From Lachnospiraceae bacterium (lineage in GTDB: Bacteria; Bacillota; Clostridia; Oscillospirales; CAG-272), in the NCBI GenBank assembly GCA_024404495.1, contig JAKSPT010000002.1:41410-105409 (forward strand): a stretch of DNA of 64,000 nucleotides, given 5' to 3'. Under the pieces are notes generated by a model. It saw only the letters and a list, made by a program, of their open reading frames with translations. It did no database searches and was not told where the DNA came from. Shown one piece after another: positions 1,275 through 33,836 of the stretch (position 1 is the first letter of the stretch; each line of letters starts with the position of its first letter). The translations under genes and the position numbers were made by a program.

Positions 1275-2936
1275 TTATTTTCCGCCGAAGGGGCGGGGAA
1301 CGGTAAAGCGGTTGATAAGGGGCGTCAGGGCGTTCGCGGCGACGACGCCGATCGGCGCGCAGTTGACGATCCCGGTATAGTGGCGGAGCAGCAGGGTGAA
1401 CGTTCCGGCGAGGAAGCCGAAGACGATCTTTCCGGTCCCGGAATAGGGGACGGTCGCGGTATCGGCACCGCAGAAGAGCGCGCAGAGGAGGAAGGTGCCC
1501 GAGCAGGTCTCGAAAAGCACGGTCTGCAGGAGGATCATATCGGTCCGGACCGCCGTGCGGGGCAGCAGCGCCGCAAAGAGGACGCCGGAGAGCAGCATCG
1601 CTGCCGGAACCTGCCACGGCACCGCCTTTCTGACGAGCAGATAAACGAGGGCGATGAGGACGAAAAGCACGGGGAGAAGTCCCGCCGCGTTTCCGAATAT
1701 GAGCGAAACGAGGGAATCGGAGGGGAGAACGCCCTCACGGAGGGAGGCAAGGATCGGATTCCCCACGCCGTAGGCAGCCGGATCGGGCGAGGCGAGCAGA
1801 AGAGGCGCGCGCACGCCGGGGATCGCACCGAAACGGTCAAGCCCGTTCCAAAGGAGAAGGAGCAGGGAGAACGCCGCCATCGCGGGATTCAGGGGATGGG
1901 AGCGGACGGAAGAGGTGCGGAGCCCGAGAACGCCCCGGAACAGGATCACGGCGAGCCCGCAGAGCGCGGCGATCGCCCAGAGGGGCAGATTCGGGGAGGA
2001 AATGAGCGTGACGGTCAGCGCCGTGACGGCAAAATTCCGATCCTTCAGCGCGGACGGCGGGTCTTTCCGCGAGATCAGCGCGAAAGCAAGCTCGGAAAAC
2101 AGACAGGCGAGCAGGGCGGTGAGCAGGACCGTCACCGTGCGCCAGCCGTAATGCCAGATCCGCACGCCGAGGATCGGGAGCGCGGCGATATAAAGATCAA
2201 CGGCGAGGGAGGAGATTTTTTCGGAGGTCCGTAAGAACGGAGCGGAAAGCGGGGACTCCTCCGGCTCTTCGGGTGCGGAAACGGCAGCCGCTTCGGGCAC
2301 GGGCTCCGGTTCGGGAGCGATTACGGGCGCGGGAACGGGTTCCGCTTCTTCAATCGGCTTTGCGGCCGGTTTTTCTTCCGCGATCGGTTCGGGCGCGGGA
2401 GCGGATTCGGCGGCGATTTCCGGTTCGGTTACGGCTTCGGGTGCGGGCACCGATTTCGGAAGCGGCGCGGCTTTTTCTTCGGAAACGGCGCTGACGGGCT
2501 TCTTTCCGGGCACGGCAAGCACGCGTCTTCCTTTTTTCCGTAAGGAGGGGGCCGCCTGCTTTTCCCGCGGAGCCTCTTCCGTTTCCGGAGACGCTGCGGG
2601 AGCCGGTACGGCTTCCCGGAGGGCTTCTCCGGCGGCGCTTTCCGGCGCGTCGGACGGCTTGGAAACGTCCGGGATCAGGACGGCGGACGGCTCGTCTGCC
2701 GTTCCGGGTTCCTCCGGGGGCAGGACGATCGGTTCGGTAACGCCCGGATCGGCGGTTTCCTCCCCGGGAAGCAGGTCAAGCGGCGCGGAAAGCGCGTCTT
2801 CCCCTTCGGGGGAAAGCGTTTCCTTCTCGCTTTCGTCGTTCTGATACAGGATCGAAAGGAAGGTTTTTTCCAGACTGCTGTCGGTTTTGAAGGAGGGCGC
2901 GCCCTTCTCCGGTTTGTTGTCAGGCTTTTCCGCCAC
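1275..2936 (-). CDS. RnfD/NqrB-like polytopic membrane protein with a ~230-aa Pro/Glu/Ala-rich low-complexity N-terminal extension
   Basis: 553-aa ORF with GTG start; the C-terminal 320 aa are multi-TM and end ...NALTPLINRFTVPRPFGGK, typical of the RnfD family; it overlaps the upstream RnfC-like gene by 17 nt. Confidence 0.6.
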   Translation of the reverse strand: MAEKPDNKPEKGAPSFKTDSSLEKTFLSILYQNDESEKETLSPEGEDALSAPLDLLPGEETADPGVTEPIVLPPEEPGTADEPSAVLIPDVSKPSDAPESAAGEALREAVPAPAASPETEEAPREKQAAPSLRKKGRRVLAVPGKKPVSAVSEEKAAPLPKSVPAPEAVTEPEIAAESAPAPEPIAEEKPAAKPIEEAEPVPAPVIAPEPEPVPEAAAVSAPEEPEESPLSAPFLRTSEKISSLAVDLYIAALPILGVRIWHYGWRTVTVLLTALLACLFSELAFALISRKDPPSALKDRNFAVTALTVTLISSPNLPLWAIAALCGLAVILFRGVLGLRTSSVRSHPLNPAMAAFSLLLLLWNGLDRFGAIPGVRAPLLLASPDPAAYGVGNPILASLREGVLPSDSLVSLIFGNAAGLLPVLFVLIALVYLLVRKAVPWQVPAAMLLSGVLFAALLPRTAVRTDMILLQTVLFETCSGTFLLCALFCGADTATVPYSGTGKIVFGFLAGTFTLLLRHYTGIVNCAPIGVVAANALTPLINRFTVPRPFGGK

Positions 2937-4329
2937 GTCCGGTCACCTCGCTTTCGGTCGTTTCGGTTTCTTCGACTTCCTCAAAGAAGAAGTCGGTCAG
3001 GATCTCCTTGAGTCCGCGCGCGGGCGCCTTCGGCGCGTCGGACGGCGGAACGGAACGGTCGGCGACCGCTTTTGCCTTTTTCACGGCGTCGGAGACCGGG
3101 ATCCCGGCGGGGCAGACGTAGGTACAGGTGCCGCAGCCGAGGCAATAGTGCGCGCCGGAGTCGGTCAGCGCTTTTTCTTTCCCGCTTTCCAACGCCTTCA
3201 GAATCAGCGGCGGGACGAGATAGGCGGGGCAGGCGGCGGTGCATCTGCCGCAGTTGTCGCAGGGGAGAAGATCGCCGCCGACGCCGAGCGCACGGGGCGA
3301 GGAGGCGAGAACGACGCGGTCCTCGGGACGCAGATGCCCGTCCGGCTGTTCTTCGCGGCCCGACATCGGACCTTTTCCGCAGACGAGGAGGGACGCCTTG
3401 CGAAGGGATCCGCCGCAGCACTCCACGCAGTCGGAAAGGGAAAGACCGACCGGGAGACGGGCGAGGATCGGCTTGGAAAGCGCGCTTCCGCCGACGAAAA
3501 CGGGGGCGAAAAGATAGGGAACGCCCTCGGAAAAGGCGTAATAGACCTCGGCGCAAAGCTCGGGGGTAAGGGTGAACATCCCGGTTTTTTCAAGAAGAGC
3601 GGCGGGGGAGTCTGCTTCGGGCGGAAGCTCCGCTCCGATCAGCATGGAGATCAGACGCCGGGGATCCGAGGCGGGATAGGCTGCCTTTTTCATCACGCAG
3701 ACGCGGAAAAGACGGCTGCCGGCGATCGCTTTTTCGACCAGATTCAGCAGCTTCACGTCGCTGTCCGGGAGCACGAAGATCGCCCGACGCGCGGAGGCAG
3801 TCTTCATCACGATCTTGAGCCCGCCGATGACGGCGGCGCTTTCCTTTGCGAGGACGGTACAGAGGAGAGCTTCAAACCCCGGTTCCTGCCCGGCGACGTT
3901 CAGAATCAGCGTTCTGCCTTTTTCGCCGACCGGACGGAGGGCGATTTCGGAGAGCTCGTCCGAAAGGAGCCCGCCGCGGGTGCCGGGGATGCCGGAGGCG
4001 GCAAGCACCGCGAGCAGGTCGGCGGGGGAGCTGTCGCGCAGGGAGCGGCGATAGCCGACGAAGGGAAGGGTGTCCTCGCCCTCACAGCAAAGCTTCAGGA
4101 CTTTCCCGTCCGCGAAGGCGACCGTTCCGGAATAGGGCGCGTGATGGATCCGGTCGAGCGGCTGTCCCGCGAGGACCTTGTCCCCGACCGAAACGAGCGG
4201 CTCTCCGGCAATATCAAAGGTCAGCAGAAAAGGGAAGTCCGGAAGCACGACGGAAGAAAATTTGCTTCTTTCCCTTCCGCCCGGAAGAGCGGCGCCCGGA
4301 TCGGCGCCCCGGTTCCAACTGATGTTCAT
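2920..4329 (-). CDS. RnfC-like iron-sulfur protein with two 4Fe-4S ferredoxin motifs
   Basis: Two CxxCxxCxxxCP clusters (CDNCGRCTAACP, CLGCGTCTYVCP). Start trimmed to MNISWNRG at 4329 with a GGAGG RBS 7 nt upstream; the longer ORF to 4533 runs through the AT-rich promoter region. Confidence 0.6.
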   Translation of the reverse strand: MNISWNRGADPGAALPGGRERSKFSSVVLPDFPFLLTFDIAGEPLVSVGDKVLAGQPLDRIHHAPYSGTVAFADGKVLKLCCEGEDTLPFVGYRRSLRDSSPADLLAVLAASGIPGTRGGLLSDELSEIALRPVGEKGRTLILNVAGQEPGFEALLCTVLAKESAAVIGGLKIVMKTASARRAIFVLPDSDVKLLNLVEKAIAGSRLFRVCVMKKAAYPASDPRRLISMLIGAELPPEADSPAALLEKTGMFTLTPELCAEVYYAFSEGVPYLFAPVFVGGSALSKPILARLPVGLSLSDCVECCGGSLRKASLLVCGKGPMSGREEQPDGHLRPEDRVVLASSPRALGVGGDLLPCDNCGRCTAACPAYLVPPLILKALESGKEKALTDSGAHYCLGCGTCTYVCPAGIPVSDAVKKAKAVADRSVPPSDAPKAPARGLKEILTDFFFEEVEETETTESEVTGRGGKA

Positions 4330-4579: not shown

Positions 4580-4656
4580 GGCGGAATAGCTCAGTTGGCT
4601 AGAGCATTCGGTTCATACCCGACAGGTCGTTGGTTCAAATCCGACTTCCGCTACCA
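4580..4656 (+). tRNA. tRNA-Met (anticodon CAT); elongator, initiator or Ile2-lysidine identity not resolvable by eye
   Basis: Cloverleaf folded by hand: acceptor GGCGGAA/TTCCGCT, D arm GCTC-AGTTGGCTA-GAGC, anticodon loop TTCATAC, T arm GTTGG-TTCAAAT-CCGAC, encoded CCA. Confidence 0.8.
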
Positions 4657-4731
4657 GGCCCGTTGGTCAAGCGGTTAAGACACGGCCCTTTCACGGCTGT
4701 AACATGGGTTCGATTCCCGTACGGGTCACCA
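4657..4731 (+). tRNA. tRNA-Glu (anticodon TTC)
   Basis: Matches the classic Firmicutes tRNA-Glu: GGCCCGTTGGTCAAGCGGTTAAGACA...CCTTTCACGG...GGGTTCGATTCCCGTACGGGTCACCA; anticodon loop CTTTCAC; encoded CCA. Confidence 0.85.
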
Positions 4732-28720: not shown

Positions 28721-28778
28721 TCATGGGCGAGTGACGGAACGCTTTTGCAATTCATTTCATTCCGCAGGAGGTGAGAAA

Positions 28779-30032
28779 ATGCCATACAGCGAGCTGATCA
28801 AGAATTTTTCCCGCGTGCGCGACTATATGCGGGAATTCTACGTTTACGGCTTCAAGAGCCGCGACGAATACACGAAAAAGAGCGCCCGTTCCTACGACGA
28901 CGAGAAGCGCCGGATGGAGAGCCTGCTCGGCGACCGGATGCGCTTCCGCAGGACGGCGGAAGGAAAGAACGTCTTCCTTTCGATCGACACCCGCGTTTCC
29001 CGCCGCAATCCGCTGTACAAGGCGTGGAAGGCGAAAAGCTTCACCGACGGCGATATCACGCTCCATTTTCTTCTGCTTGACCTTCTTGCCTCCGAAAAAA
29101 GCGGTCTTTCCGTTCCGGAGATCACCGACCGACTTTCGGGCGTCTTCCCGGATTCGGCGCGCGTTTTCGACGAATCCACCGTCCGAAAAAAGCTGAAGGA
29201 ATACGAAGCCGAGGGGCTGGTCCGCACCGAAAAGAGCGGGAAAAGCCTTTTGTATTCTCTTTCCTGCCCGAACGATCTGGCGCCCTGCGCCGATATGCTC
29301 GGGTTCTTTTCCGAGGTCTCGCCCTGCGGCGTGATCGGTTCCTTCCTGCTTGACAAGACCGACGCGGGGGAGGGAAGCTTCGCGTTCAAGCATCATTACA
29401 TCACCGGCGCGCTCGACAGCGGGATCGCTGCTGAACTGTTCGCCGCGATGCGGGAAAAGCGGAGCGTGATCCTCGAAAACGCGAACCGGAAGAACGACAG
29501 CGTCGCAAAGATCGTCGCCGTGCCGCTGAAGATCATGTGCAGCGCGCAGAGCGGAAGGCAGTATCTGATGGCGTTTGTGCCGCGGTTCCGCAGGATCACC
29601 TCGTTCCGGCTTGACAATATCCTGTCGGTCACGGCGGGGGAGGAATGCGAACGGTTCGATGAATACCGTGCCGCGCTTGCCGGAATGCGGAAAAATATGT
29701 GGGGGATCAGTACGCAGAGCCGGGGCGGCGACAGGCTCGAACACGTGGAATTCACCGTCCGGTATGGAAAAAACGAACCGTACATCCGTCAGCGGCTCGA
29801 ACGGGAAAAACGGTGCGGAACGGTCGAGGATATCGACGGGAACACCGCGAAATTCTCCGCCGACGTGTTCGACGCGAGCGAAATGATCCCGTGGATCCGC
29901 ACCTTCCTCTGCCGGATCACCGAAATTCATTTTTCGGACCCGGACACGGAAAAGCGGTTCCTTGACGATCTTCACGCGATGTACGGTCTGTACGGGCTCG
30001 GAGAGGAGGCGGACGGAAATGCTGTTCAGTGA
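28779..30032 (+). CDS. WYL-domain transcriptional regulator-like protein (HTH-WYL-WCX type, PafB/PafC/YafY-like), first of a tandem pair
   Basis: The N-terminus MPYSELIKNFSRVRDYMREFYVYGFKSRDEY resembles the conserved N-terminus of clostridial WYL regulators; AGGAGG RBS; 14-nt overlap with the next gene. Confidence 0.5.
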   Translation: MPYSELIKNFSRVRDYMREFYVYGFKSRDEYTKKSARSYDDEKRRMESLLGDRMRFRRTAEGKNVFLSIDTRVSRRNPLYKAWKAKSFTDGDITLHFLLLDLLASEKSGLSVPEITDRLSGVFPDSARVFDESTVRKKLKEYEAEGLVRTEKSGKSLLYSLSCPNDLAPCADMLGFFSEVSPCGVIGSFLLDKTDAGEGSFAFKHHYITGALDSGIAAELFAAMREKRSVILENANRKNDSVAKIVAVPLKIMCSAQSGRQYLMAFVPRFRRITSFRLDNILSVTAGEECERFDEYRAALAGMRKNMWGISTQSRGGDRLEHVEFTVRYGKNEPYIRQRLEREKRCGTVEDIDGNTAKFSADVFDASEMIPWIRTFLCRITEIHFSDPDTEKRFLDDLHAMYGLYGLGEEADGNAVQ

Positions 30033-30930
30033 GCTTTACGGCGCATACTACAACGCCGTCGCCGCGATCCTGAAAAAAGCCGCGGAAAAACCGCTGACGA
30101 AAGAAGAAATGCGGCAGACCGTGGAAAAATACGCCTTCGGGGAAAGCTTCGTGACCATTGAAGCGGCGCTCCGGAACGGCGACTGGCCGCTGCTCGGGGA
30201 AGACGGCAGGTCGGTTCTGAAAAACGCGCCCGAAATGCCGCTGACCCTGCTTCAGAAGCGGTGGCTGAAGGCGATCTCGCTCGACCCGAGGGTGAAGCTG
30301 TTCGGCGACTGTATTCCGGACTTTCCGGAGGTCGAACCGCTTTTCACCGGGGAAGATTACGAGGTTTTCGACCGCTATTCCGACGGGGACGATTATTCCG
30401 ACGAGGGGTATATCGGCAGATTCCGTCTGATCCTCCGGGCGATCGGAGAACGGACCCCCCTGCGGTTCGAGGTGAAAAACCGGACGGGAGCGGTCAGCCG
30501 CTTCACGGCGATGCCGGAATACCTCGAGTATTCCGAAAAGGACGATAAATTCCGCCTGATGACCTCGGGCTGCCGGTACGGCTCGGTCGTCAACCTCGGC
30601 AGGATCGTTTCCTGCGAGGAGTGCTTCGGGGAACTCCGGGGCAGCCCGCCGAGGGAACGGCGCCGCGCGGAGGAGACCCTCGTCTTCGAGATCACGGACG
30701 AAAGAAAAGCGCTCGAACGGGTTTTAATGCACTTCGCCCACTTTGAAAAGGAGGCGGAGCGGATCGGGGAAAAGACCTACCGCGTCTCGCTCCGGTACGA
30801 TAAGGACGACGAGACCGAGCTCGTTATCCGCGTTCTGTCCTTCGGACCGTTTCTCCGGGTGGTTTCTCCGCAAAGCTTCGTCAATCTGATCCGGGAGCGC
30901 CTGATGATGCAGAAAAAATACGGACTGTAA
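30019..30930 (+). CDS. WYL-domain protein, paralogue of the upstream gene (PafC-like partner)
   Basis: N-terminus MLFSELYGAYYNAV parallels the first gene; C-terminal WCX-like end RVVSPQSFVNLIRERLMMQKK. Confidence 0.5.
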   Translation: MLFSELYGAYYNAVAAILKKAAEKPLTKEEMRQTVEKYAFGESFVTIEAALRNGDWPLLGEDGRSVLKNAPEMPLTLLQKRWLKAISLDPRVKLFGDCIPDFPEVEPLFTGEDYEVFDRYSDGDDYSDEGYIGRFRLILRAIGERTPLRFEVKNRTGAVSRFTAMPEYLEYSEKDDKFRLMTSGCRYGSVVNLGRIVSCEECFGELRGSPPRERRRAEETLVFEITDERKALERVLMHFAHFEKEAERIGEKTYRVSLRYDKDDETELVIRVLSFGPFLRVVSPQSFVNLIRERLMMQKKYGL

Positions 30931-31083
30931 TCAAAAACGTCGGAAATTTCCGGCGTTTCAGAGGATGTAAAAAAAGGAAACTTTTTTTACATCCTCTGTT
31001 TTCGCAGCTTTTTTTCCGTGATAATCCTTGTTTTCTATGGTATGATGGTATTGCGGAAACGGAAACGGGTGAATGAAATCACC

Positions 31084-31212
31084 GCGCTGCGCGGGGAGAT
31101 TCCGAAGCGTATGGCGGTTTCCGGATTTGCAAAGGGCAATCACGCACAGTGATGGGGTTCAACTCCCCGCTATATCGCAGGTTCGAATCCTGCCGTGCGC
31201 CGCTTTTTGTGC
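31084..31212 (+). ncRNA. Structured ncRNA with a tRNA-like T-arm; candidate Y RNA/YrlA-like tRNA mimic upstream of rtcB
   Basis: Possible -10 (tatgat) at ~31043; an 11-bp closing stem gcgctgcgcgg (31084-31094) pairs with ccgtgcgccgc (31193-31203), followed by a T-run. Internal hairpins include gggg-ttcaact-cccc and a near-canonical T-arm gcagg-TTCGAAT-cctgc. It lacks an anticodon arm and CCA, so it is not a functional tRNA. Confidence 0.45.
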
Positions 31213-31435
31213 GTATCGCCAGTGGATTGGTGTAAAAATTGCTCCGAAAAAACGCTTATCCCGTCCGGCAGAAATGCCGGACAGCGGGGAAACGGCCCTG
31301 CCGGGGAGGGGATACCGCCGTATCCCGACAAAGATCAGACCTTGCGTCCCGTCTTTGAAAGGAGCGGCTCAACGTTCCCGCCGCCGTTTTCCCGCGGATA
31401 AGCGAACGAAAATCATACCGAAAGGATAACATATT

Positions 31436-32566
31436 ATGAAAAAGGTTATTATCAACGAAAAACAGAAGGGCTTTCTTTTTAAGAACGGAAAATACGTCCG
31501 CACCGTCGGCGCGGGAAAATATCTCCTTTGGGGTGGGAAAACGGTCGAGGTCTCGGAGCTCGGAGGCGAGATCGTCTGCGCCGGGTGCCCGCTCGACGTA
31601 CTGCTGGAGGACGAGGCGTTCGCTTCGCAGGTCACGGTCGCCGAGGTCAACGACGAGGAGCTCGTTCTCCATTTCGTGAACGGGAGATTTGCGGGCGTCC
31701 TCCGCACGCGCGGAAAACACGCCTTCTGGAACGGAAAGGATGCTCACGAATTCCGTTCCGTGGACGTCTCCTCCCCCGAAGTCGGGGAAGACGTTCCGAG
31801 ATATCTGTTCGAGTCGCTTCATCCCTCGCTGTACGAGAGGATCGAGGTGGCGGAGTATCAGAGAGGGAGGCTGTTCCTCGATAACCGCTTCGTCCGCGTT
31901 CTCGAACCGGGGACCTATTATTTCTGGAGGACGGGCGTGAAGGTGGAGGTCAATACCGTCGATACCCGTCTGACGAAGATGGAGATCACCGGGCAGGAGA
32001 TCATGACGCAGGATAAGGTGGCGCTCCGCATCAATTTCGTCTGCAATTACCGCGTAACCGATTTCGTCCGGGTCCTGACCGAGATCGACAACTATGAGGA
32101 ACAGATGCACGTCGCGGCACAGCTTGCCCTTCGCGATTACGTCGGCAGATACAGGCTCGACGAGATCCTCGAAAACAAGGACGGTCTTTCCCGCTTCGTA
32201 TGCGAAAAGCTGAAGGAGAAGGAAAACGAGCTCTTCGTGGAGATCAAGGACGCCGGGGTCAAGGATATCATCCTTCCCGGCGAGATCCGCGATATCATGA
32301 ACACGGTCCTGCTCGCGGAAAAGAAGGCGCAGGCAAACGTCATCACCCGCCGCGAAGAGGTCGCCTCTACCCGTTCGCTTCTGAACACGGCGAAGCTGAT
32401 GGAGGAGAACCGTACGCTTTACAAGCTGAAGGAACTGGAATATGTGGAGCACATCTGCGAAAACGTCGGCAATATCACGCTGAACGGGAGCGGAGATATG
32501 CTCTCCCAGCTCCTCGGACTCATGAGGGGCGGAAAACAGACGGAAGAAGGGGATTTTGATGTTTGA
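31436..32566 (+). CDS. SPFH/band-7 (slipin/stomatin-like) domain protein
   Basis: Band-7 core pattern (EITGQEIMTQDKVALRINFVCNYRVTD...) followed by a coiled-coil; overlaps rtcB by 8 nt. Confidence 0.6.
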   Translation: MKKVIINEKQKGFLFKNGKYVRTVGAGKYLLWGGKTVEVSELGGEIVCAGCPLDVLLEDEAFASQVTVAEVNDEELVLHFVNGRFAGVLRTRGKHAFWNGKDAHEFRSVDVSSPEVGEDVPRYLFESLHPSLYERIEVAEYQRGRLFLDNRFVRVLEPGTYYFWRTGVKVEVNTVDTRLTKMEITGQEIMTQDKVALRINFVCNYRVTDFVRVLTEIDNYEEQMHVAAQLALRDYVGRYRLDEILENKDGLSRFVCEKLKEKENELFVEIKDAGVKDIILPGEIRDIMNTVLLAEKKAQANVITRREEVASTRSLLNTAKLMEENRTLYKLKELEYVEHICENVGNITLNGSGDMLSQLLGLMRGGKQTEEGDFDV

Positions 32567-33836
32567 CATACAGGGAAAAGTCACGACCGCCGTCTGCTAT
32601 GCGAAGGTGGTCGAGGACGCGGCGATCGAGCAGATCCGCAGAATGTGCGACTCCCCGCTGACCGAGAATGCCAAGGTCCGCGTCATGCCCGACGTTCACG
32701 CGGGCAAGGGCTGTACGATCGGGACGACGATGACGGTCACCGACCGGGCGTGCCCCAACGTGGTCGGGGTCGATATCGGGTGCGGGATGTACACCGTGAA
32801 ACTTGCCGACAGGGAGCTCGATTTTGAAAAGCTTGACGGGGCGTGCCATTTCATTCCCTCCGGAAAGAAGGTCTGGGAGGGAAGGATGGAGCGCTTCGAT
32901 CTGACCGGACTGCGCTGTTACCGTTCACTCCGCGACGCCAAACGGCTGGAGCGGTCGCTCGGTACGCTCGGCGGCGGGAACCACTTCATCGAGGTGGACA
33001 AAGCGGCGGACGGCACCTTTTATCTCGTCATCCATTCCGGAAGCCGGAACCTCGGCAAACAGGTCGCCGAGATCTATCAGCAGCTCGCGGTCGATCTGCA
33101 TTCCGGAAAAGAAGAGTACTTCAATAAGTGTGAGGAGATCATCCGTACCTACAAGGAGCAGGGAAGGCGCGCAGAGATTCAGGATACGCTGAAGGCGCTC
33201 AAAAAGGAATTCAAGTCAAAGGATCCCGACGTCCCCGAGGACCTCTGTTGGCTTTACGGCACTTATCTTGACGACTACCTTCACGACGTGGAGATCTGTC
33301 AGGCATTTGCCCGCAGAAGCCGCGAGCGGATGGCGGAAATCATTCTCGAAAGGACCGGAATGACCGCCGTCGAGTCCTTCCATACCGTTCACAACTACAT
33401 AGACACCGGGGAAAGGATCCTCCGCAAGGGCGCGATCGCAGCGCACGCGGGCGAGAAGGTCCTCATCCCGATCAATATGCGCGACGGTTCGGTCATCGCG
33501 ACCGGACGCGGCAATCCCGAGTGGAACTTTTCCGCTCCCCACGGCGCGGGGCGCGTGATGTCGAGAGCCACGGCGAAGGAAACGCTCGATATGGAGACCT
33601 ACCGCGCGGCGATGGAGGGAATCTATACGACTTCCGTTAATCCCGATACGATCGACGAGGCGCCGATGGCGTATAAATCGCTTGAGGACATCATCGACGT
33701 GATCCGCGATACCGTGGACGTGATCGAGGTCATGAAGCCGGTCTACAACTTCAAGGCATCCGGAAACGGCACCCCGTGGGAGAACGGGAAAGAAGACCCG
33801 AGCGGGGATGACGGCGCGCAGAACGAGGCGGAATAA
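32559..33836 (+). CDS. rtcB: RtcB-family RNA ligase (3'-phosphate/5'-OH RNA-splicing ligase), short 425-aa form
   Basis: RtcB metal- and GTP-binding motifs (VMPDVHAGKGCTIG, GGGNHFIE, APHGAGR); ATG at 32559 (the ORF track's 32556 is a TTG). Confidence 0.8.
   Translation: MFDIQGKVTTAVCYAKVVEDAAIEQIRRMCDSPLTENAKVRVMPDVHAGKGCTIGTTMTVTDRACPNVVGVDIGCGMYTVKLADRELDFEKLDGACHFIPSGKKVWEGRMERFDLTGLRCYRSLRDAKRLERSLGTLGGGNHFIEVDKAADGTFYLVIHSGSRNLGKQVAEIYQQLAVDLHSGKEEYFNKCEEIIRTYKEQGRRAEIQDTLKALKKEFKSKDPDVPEDLCWLYGTYLDDYLHDVEICQAFARRSRERMAEIILERTGMTAVESFHTVHNYIDTGERILRKGAIAAHAGEKVLIPINMRDGSVIATGRGNPEWNFSAPHGAGRVMSRATAKETLDMETYRAAMEGIYTTSVNPDTIDEAPMAYKSLEDIIDVIRDTVDVIEVMKPVYNFKASGNGTPWENGKEDPSGDDGAQNEAE

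Follow-up and report, generated by a model that had tools for sequence, protein, structure and literature searches.

At positions 31084-31212 of a 64-kb stretch of Lachnospiraceae bacterium contig JAKSPT010000002.1 (the whole stretch is called the window below), a first-pass annotation had proposed a tRNA mimic of about 125 nt, placed upstream of an rtcB operon that has no Ro60/Rsr gene in its vicinity, and had considered it as a candidate Y RNA or YrlA-like element. The RNA lies in a cassette whose usual order among related loci is WYL1-WYL2-RNA-SPFH-RtcB, with a tandem pair of WYL-type regulator genes upstream and the genes of an SPFH/Band-7 (slipin) protein and of the RNA ligase RtcB downstream, the latter two recognized by Pfam as anticipated (Table 1). 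We found that the segment is the middle part of a structured RNA of approximately 350 nt, the tRNA-like module of which reaches 31231 and thus extends past the end assigned earlier. What we observe is that this RNA is conserved, that it is structured and that it is linked to the SPFH gene, to the pair of WYL genes and to RtcB.

Homologues of the SPFH protein number in the thousands, and starting from an alignment of 16 of them (A1) we fetched 80 genomic loci, mostly metagenome-assembled genomes (MAGs) of Clostridia (Oscillospiraceae, Ruminococcaceae and Lachnospiraceae) plus a small number from Erysipelotrichaceae and one complete genome, that of Oscillibacter valericigenes. Searches with tblastn located WYL1 in 53/80 and WYL2 in 56/80 of these SPFH-seeded loci, upstream of the RNA, and RtcB in 52/80. 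A second set was collected independently of any protein by scanning metagenome contigs with the pattern of the P1 hairpin described below. It returned 80 loci, and a same-strand SPFH gene lies downstream of the RNA in 71 of the 73 that hold enough downstream sequence, usually at a spacing of about 400 nt, and RtcB is present in 50 of the 80. Because SPFH follows the RNA even at loci where RtcB is missing downstream and unrelated genes come after SPFH, it is SPFH that is the tightest partner of the RNA. In the window the SPFH gene starts about 260 nt 3′ of the T arm, and most relatives carry a GGTTCRANTCC motif 250-450 nt upstream of SPFH, often in two copies.

The two exceptions to the SPFH linkage are one disrupted SPFH gene and one locus, L105, where the RNA is cut by an integrase element. 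At L105 a tyrosine integrase gene (159-1750; Phage_integrase, E 1e-29) adjoins an RNA truncated directly after the T arm, no SPFH gene follows, and the mobile element seems to have taken the tRNA-like T arm as its integration site, so that the T arm was treated there like a tRNA gene. Another variation is an extra open reading frame (ORF), about 205 aa long and without a match in Pfam, which lies between the RNA and SPFH at L018 (3366-3983) and was also seen at L005, L015, L019, L034, L041 and L052 and in five metagenome loci. It puts about 650 nt between the two partners in these seven SPFH-seeded and five metagenome loci (RNA-to-SPFH spacing of about 1040 nt in the latter), and the RNA is unchanged and stays at the head of the operon.

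Table 1. Positions of the cassette genes, promoter elements and RNA features within the window
Feature	Position	Strand	Evidence
Tandem pair of WYL-type regulator genes (28731-30032; 29962-30930)	28731-30930	+	Pfam
Conserved DNA box TTCGCAGCTTTTTTTCCGTGA over the -35 region, probable WYL-pair operator	31001-31021	+	Near-identical in most of 56 loci
-10 hexamer TATGAT with upstream TG (relatives: TGgTAAAAT)	31041-31046	+	Promoter scan, sigma-70-like; position kept in relatives
Whole structured leader RNA, about 350 nt (probable ends)	31053-31404	+	Conserved blocks across the intergenic region
P0 hairpin GGUGA-AUGAAA-UCACC	31068-31083	+	GUG...CAC hairpin at the same place in relatives; recovered by minimum free energy fold
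P1 hairpin: S1 (31087-31092) with S2 (31107-31112); apical 31095-31097 with 31101-31103; purine-rich internal loop	31087-31112	+	Covariation
Optional second tRNA-like elbow, three hairpins	31127-31168	+	Same module in 11/56 loci
Main T arm GCAGG-UUCGAAU-CCUGC	31177-31193	+	Alignment A4: 100% paired in 56 sequences; 4/5 pairs changed on both sides
Capped acceptor-like stem-loop (AS), C+GUGCGC with GCGUAU+(C)G, loop CGCUUUUUGU	31194-31218	+	Covariation
D-arm-like hairpin GCCA-GUGGAU-UGGU	31218-31231	+	81% paired; CCA/UGG, CCU/AGG, CCG/CGG, GCC/GGC variants
Rod-like 3′ domain, about 150 nt	31253-31404	+	Model R2, covariation, minimum free energy fold
GGAUACC, invariant save one C/U position; internal loop opposite UCAA (31369-31372)	31310-31316	+	Nearly all loci; flanking helices covary
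SPFH/Band-7 (slipin) protein	31436-32566	+	Pfam PF01145, E 1.9e-27
RtcB RNA ligase	32556-33836	+	Pfam PF01139, E 6.9e-56

The tRNA-like core module

The core of the RNA consists of a T arm, a capped acceptor-like stem-loop (AS) and a D-arm-like hairpin. The near-canonical T arm that had drawn attention to the region is present and conserved, and the stem-loop next to it shows both-side changes in all five of its modelled pairs. Its stem letters are wholly different between lineages and the pairing is always kept, with GUGCGUC/GACGUAU, CCGGGU/ACCUGG, CUGAGG/CCUCAG and CGGCGGA/UCCGCUG as examples. The D-arm-like hairpin reads CCA-GUGGNU-UGG in the group to which the window belongs and GCC-AAGUGGUUAA-GGC in deeper branches, and its loop carries a GG, the counterpart of the tRNA GG that pairs with the T loop.

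This arrangement replaces the one first suggested, where an 11-bp stem (31084-31094 with 31193-31203) closed the element and a T-tract marked its 3′ end. The proposed stem contains a C-C mismatch and two G-U pairs and is one of several possible pairings, and comparative data instead pair 31087-31092 with 31107-31112 and 31194-31200 with 31211-31218. The run of five T at 31204-31208 is not a terminator, because it lies within the loop of the AS hairpin, a place at which relatives carry GAAA, CAAAA or GCAA instead; a scan also gave no plus-strand terminator at 31190-31215.

From the T arm, capped acceptor and D arm we built a covariance model (R1) and used it with a cut-off of E <= 1e-10. With R1, the window and 55 of the 80 related loci each show a single strong match, located upstream of SPFH; in the window it covers 31171-31246 (56.9 bits, E 2.4e-27). 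Covariation scores were compared with those of 500 shuffles, and controls with slid partners were also run. The R1 alignment scores 0.398 against 0.159 when shuffled (0/500) and at most 0.093 with slid partners, hence the tRNA mimic upstream of an rtcB operon without Ro/Rsr is both conserved and covarying. Analysis of covariation in homologous regions upstream of rtcB had been named in the first-pass annotation as a way to check its proposal, and it gives strong support in the core, in P1 and in the rod.

P1 hairpin, rod domain and promoter

The P1 hairpin is 97.5% paired in its alignment (A5), with a covariation of 0.286 against 0.123 when shuffled (0/500). One of its pairs is GC in 19 and AU in 14 sequences, another is AU in 15, CG in 11 and GC in 4, and the apical hairpin takes the form GGN/NCC. 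The strands of P1 and AS together form a set of four quasi-palindromic strands, namely S1 CUGCGC, S2 GCGUAUG, S3 CGUGCGC and S4 GCGUAU, among which several pairings are possible; all four sites (31087-31092, 31107-31113, 31194-31200 and 31211-31216) are of alternating purine-pyrimidine composition. P1 competes both with the closing stem first suggested and with a normal tRNA acceptor stem, S2:S3. The latter is impossible (at most 4/7 pairs) in 17 of 37 loci, the distribution across loci being bimodal, so that the two-hairpin fold is the only universal one. A tRNA of normal topology (31107-31201), which the Rfam tRNA model scores at 16.1 bits, was ruled out as the universal fold since these 17 loci are unable to form it. 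The cloverleaf-like alternative is a property of a subgroup and may have arisen by tandem duplication or may be a real switch. The same interchangeability of strands was seen with an unrelated sequence (ACUUC/GAAGU) at L071.

Between P1 and the main T arm, 11 of the 56 loci carry an optional second elbow, which in the window is composed of a D-like hairpin UUGC-AAAGG-GCAA, an anticodon-stem-like hairpin UCAC-GCACA-GUGA and a T-like arm GGGG-UUCAACU-CCCC (31154-31168), the last being the second T-arm-like hairpin recognized before. Compensatory changes were found in its middle stem and in its T-like stem.

The 3′ domain is a rod closed by the helices 31253-31261 with 31396-31404 and 31284-31295 with 31384-31395, with an inserted hairpin at 31264-31281 and a core at 31295-31384. 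It holds near-invariant internal loops (GGAUACC/UNAA and GCCYUGYC/GCCG) and a near-invariant CCARAG...YCCG motif. In most loci, 36/56 by a strict pattern, GGAUAYCG is followed about 58 nt on by CUNAA...GCCG. An anchored test of the helices flanking these motifs gave 90.9% pairing, changes on both sides in 12 of 15 pairs and a covariation of 0.661 against 0.193. The covariance model of the rod core (R2) matches once each in 63 of the 80 related loci and in the window (31295-31384; 79.5 bits, E 3.6e-18), always upstream of SPFH and including loci without a strong R1 match. In the R2 alignment (A8), 87.6% of the cells are paired, both-side changes occur in 24 of 27 pairs, and covariation reaches 0.707 against 0.216 when shuffled (0/500) and at most 0.145 in slid controls. 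Two candidates for the fold of the rod were given up: a 2-bp extension of helix H_e was unsupported, being only 51.6% paired, and a local hairpin GGAUAC/GUAUCC after GGAUACC was absent in L029, L037 and L039, in place of which helix H_e was put.

The cassette begins with a WYL pair in a PafB/PafC-like arrangement, which is divergent in a few deep-branching loci; the 28731-30032 protein has a WYL domain (Pfam, E 2.3e-5), and the 29962-30930 protein has a weak WCX match (E 1.2e-3) under the Pfam cut-off. An intrinsic-terminator-like hairpin (30961-30996) can be read from the sequence after the second WYL gene and before the promoter. The promoter is marked by a box, in its family form GTTCGCAGCTTTTTTTCCGTGA, that lies over a weak -35 about 19 nt 5′ of the extended -10. 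The box is likely the operator of the WYL pair, and the operon would be activator-dependent, by analogy with the RtcR-controlled rtc operons (Hughes 2020). It was also seen almost letter-for-letter in distant relatives, often preceded by an inverted repeat resembling the terminator of the upstream WYL gene. Judging from the conserved promoter, transcription would start at about 31053, near GCAAGG. The scan gave no plus-strand terminator between promoter and SPFH start, and the RNA would end about 30 nt before the SPFH start codon.

Folding of 31053-31410 gives a minimum free energy (MFE) of -160.2 kcal/mol (z -4.37) and recovers the whole rod, while the single-sequence MFE fold disrupts the T arm and is unreliable for that part. 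A 5′-3′ closing helix of GGUAUGAU (31041-31048) with AUCAUACC (31412-31419) was rejected, because it overlaps the -10 box upstream of the probable start and is not seen in relatives. The GCGG that precedes P1 (GCGC in the window, 31084-31087) is always complementary to CCGY in a rod internal loop (31381-31384), which suggests an as yet unproven pseudoknot between the P0/P1 junction and this loop; covariation is uninformative here, since both sides are invariant, and an extension of the pseudoknot is at chance level (19 observed vs 15.2 expected, with 173 of 2000 shuffles reaching 19).

Comparison with tRNA, YrlA and b7a-tRNA

The RNA resembles tRNA in its canonical T arm, the adjacent 7-bp acceptor-like helix, the D arm with GG and the use as an integrase target at L105. 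It differs in lacking an anticodon arm and CCA, the first two absences being already recognized, as well as a discriminator context. ARAGORN calls in the window only tRNA-Met (CAT) and tRNA-Glu (TTC), two genuine adjacent genes at 4580-4731 that are unrelated to the RNA, with none at 31084-31212; of the 77 upstream regions taken from relatives, just 3 gave an ARAGORN call. The Rfam scan that had been proposed returned no family for the element: with Rfam 15 only the same two tRNAs in the window pass the gathering score, and a permissive search of 30900-31500 gave nothing better than E 0.076, the best relevant model being that of tRNA (RF00005) over 31107-31201, with 16.1 bits vs the 29 required. 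The order of T arm, acceptor 3′ strand, acceptor 5′ strand and D arm is one which we take to be that of a circularly permuted tRNA gene.

A closer likeness is found in YrlA, whose domains run as variable region, T arm, capped acceptor stem-loop and D arm (Chen 2014). As far as the sequence tells, the RNA of the window has this same order; the comparison was made by eye with the S. Typhimurium YrlA construct (...GCGGG-UUCGAGA-CCCGU CAGAGC-CCG-GCUCUG UA GCUC-AAUGGUA-GAGC...; 10.1101/312249). The two also share the T loop UUCGAAU, the D-loop GG, a pyrimidine before the T stem and, by prediction for our RNA, co-transcription with an rtcB operon (Chen 2014; Wang 2018). Nevertheless, the genes of YrlA and rsr share a strand and are no more than about 4 kb apart (Chen 2014), and Pfam scans found no TROVE/Rsr match among the 30 large window ORFs that were scanned, in line with what had been stated before. 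The YrlA 5′ motif GNCGAAN0-1G, a putative Rsr-binding site, is absent as well and shows no conservation, the window having UCCGAAG (UUCCGAAG) and the family the consensus UUCCAAAG in the P1 loop. In addition, the U-A linker is missing in the window's subgroup, the equivalent of the anticodon stem is not made by the 5′ and 3′ ends of the RNA, the partner gene is SPFH, and the P1 hairpin and 150-nt rod belong to an RNA about three times the length of YrlA. Given that no rsr was found among the ORFs scanned, that the motif is absent and that the size is threefold, with P1 and rod, the RNA is not a member of the YrlA family. Of the earlier proposal there remains a structured and conserved tRNA mimic that is linked to rtcB and has the YrlA arm order.

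A tRNA-like RNA beside Band-7 and RtcB, named b7a-tRNA, was predicted and not validated by Burroughs & Aravind 2016 (NAR 44:8525), according to the description in 10.1101/312249, where it is said to strongly resemble authentic tRNA and to be occasionally swapped with YrlA next to Rsr. The RNA of the window has the same linkage and, so far as that description goes, most likely fits as the Clostridial form of the b7a-tRNA class. Deeper-branching loci (L071, L080, L061 and L070) carry chained tRNA-like units, some of which exceed the Rfam tRNA threshold with 30-40 bits, and these units agree with the resemblance to authentic tRNA as 10.1101/312249 words it. The window differs in having no unit that passes as tRNA and a permuted module inside a ~350-nt RNA with P1 and rod; its form is more derived than that of these four loci. 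Measured against the same description, the association with Band-7 was already known as a prediction, and the delimitation to about 350 nt, the YrlA-like permuted module, P1 and the rod are added here.

A different layout was observed at L066, L072, L076, L078 and L080 (about 2300-4000), with a distant RtcB paralogue (26-29% identity) upstream, two to four tRNA-like units in a chain, some with 7-nt anticodon-like loops, then SPFH, and with divergent WYL genes. This layout may be the ancestral form.

Vault RNA with the major vault protein (MVP), and Y RNA with Ro, are particles made of a ring- or cage-forming scaffold protein and a small structured RNA. The shoulder domain of MVP has an SPFH-like fold, and TROVE proteins bind both Y and vault RNAs. 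We draw this parallel as an analogy only, RNA binding and assembly by the SPFH protein here being a proposal.

Proposed role of the RNA and competing explanations

The SPFH protein of the cassette has no transmembrane segment that is apparent on reading its sequence. Its residues 1-175 (31436-31960) form three repeats of a five-stranded beta unit in an AlphaFold 2 model (pLDDT about 85-90), for which a whole-chain fold search gave no significant match in the PDB, and its C-terminal part has Foldseek matches to cage-forming stomatin, HflK/C and prohibitin structures. We consider the RNA to be most likely, with a probability of roughly 0.6, the cognate tRNA-mimicking partner of an SPFH/RtcB repair module. 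On induction of the operon, the WYL-controlled promoter would give rise to the RNA as a 5′ leader, together with SPFH and rtcB. The tRNA-like elbow or elbows would present a tRNA surface, and the T arm on its acceptor-like helix of about 7 bp would be the type of substrate used by RNase P and tRNA-modifying enzymes, as with YrlA. The rod with its near-invariant internal loops would be the likely protein-binding part, with the soluble SPFH protein as the candidate partner. The resulting RNA-SPFH particle could act as a scaffold or cofactor that helps RtcB to find or hold cleaved tRNA or rRNA; alternatively, the RNA could serve as a decoy that draws off nucleases directed at tRNA. The parallel system would be the rsr-yrlBA-rtcBA operon, where YrlA is paired with Ro/Rsr. 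The transcription start, the processing of the RNA, its binding to SPFH and its part in repair are what we infer from this arrangement.

Several points weigh against this reading. Expression, processing and SPFH binding of the RNA are predictions only, and the position of the RNA, directly against the ribosome-binding site, would suit a purely cis-regulatory element just as well. A normal 7-bp acceptor stem S2:S3 can form in 19 of 37 loci, the window among them (at least 6/7 pairs; about 1 expected by chance), and the fold adopted in vivo is therefore uncertain in this subgroup. The window copy also departs from the family consensus at four places, with GCGC for GCGG at 31084-31087, a G-G mismatch in helix H_b, a degenerate hairpin after the D arm and no U8-A9-like linker. 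The equation with b7a-tRNA is likewise a probable one, made from the description in the citing paper, 10.1101/312249.

The position next to the start codon leads to a rather unlikely but serious competitor, in which the RNA is a cis-acting leader and not a free RNA: its tRNA-like fold would sense RNA damage or a tRNA-processing activity, for example ribotoxin cleavage, RNase P or a tRNA-binding factor, and control the stability or translation of the SPFH-rtcB mRNA. In favour of such a leader, the RNA occupies the 5′ untranslated region (UTR), no terminator precedes the SPFH gene, and only about 30 nt separate the end of the RNA from the start codon. The four interchangeable strands, which permit two alternative folds in 19/37 loci, also speak for it, and so does the stacking of the T arm on an acceptor-like hairpin of 7 bp, the type of substrate that is cleaved by RNase P in the YrlA of M. 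smegmatis (Chen 2014). However, we found no conserved anti-terminator or anti-ribosome-binding-site pairing and no consistent attenuator pairing, and predicted 5′-3′ duplexes are inconsistent between loci. The RNA moreover stays the same where the extra ORF moves SPFH away from it (7 + 5 loci), the alternative fold is impossible in 17/37 loci, and an RNA of 350 nt, 150 of them in the rod, would be oversized for a simple switch. A true Y RNA binding a Ro/Rsr protein encoded elsewhere in the genome would share with our RNA the order of variable region, T arm, capped acceptor and D arm, the same tRNA-like tertiary nucleotides and the rtcB link, but this is highly improbable in view of the TROVE-free set of ORFs scanned, the distance and strand rule for rsr, the absent GNCGAAN0-1G and the tracking of SPFH by the RNA in 71/73 loci.

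A functionless remnant, either a decayed tRNA gene or the att site of an integrated element, had itself been named in the first-pass annotation as the case that would speak against its proposal. The weak match to the tRNA model and the fact that tRNA-like T arms serve as integration targets, as at L105, agree with such an origin. Yet many Clostridial lineages keep both the position and the structure, and compensatory changes abound, the 3′ part is not repeated elsewhere in the window, no integrase adjoins the RNA in the window, and the viral and phage collections searched hold no match to it; covariation in particular effectively refutes this reading, and we regard it as scarcely credible. Even less weight is given to the 118-aa ORF that does exist on the plus strand at 31073-31429: tblastn recovers only short fragments, which fall on conserved blocks of the RNA, none of the relatives gives a full-length match, and substitutions track base-pairing and not codons. 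The RNA is thus neither a tRNA nor a YrlA family member nor a remnant, and as a structured feature it is real and strongly supported.

Beyond the role as a partner of the repair module, we tentatively put forward a wider picture, doubtful when taken as a whole, in which the ~350-nt RNA would be an undescribed class of large structured RNA and would serve a soluble SPFH ring as its own RNA subunit, the particle being induced through WYL and acting in RNA repair. The four interchangeable acceptor-type strands would, in about half of the lineages, switch it between a two-hairpin "open" and a cloverleaf-like "closed" state, and RNase P processing or the action of RtcB could be coupled to this change of state.

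The finding bears on what the substrates of bacterial RtcB are, and on why RtcB keeps company with Ro and a Y RNA in some cases and with SPFH plus a tRNA-like RNA in others. With an RNA delimited by covariation, two covariance models and a conserved promoter box by the WYL pair, the hypothesis of a Band-7-associated RNA becomes directly testable, all the more as Clostridia of gut and rumen carry the RNA widely, the cultured Oscillibacter valericigenes Sjm18-20 (L029; AP012044.1, about 469.6-478.7 kb) among them. An Rfam entry for the RNA would close a gap there; the Rfam matches in the flanks of two loci, a group II intron domain (L016, 6446-6670) and a SAM riboswitch (L061, 1681-1764), are unrelated to the RNA.

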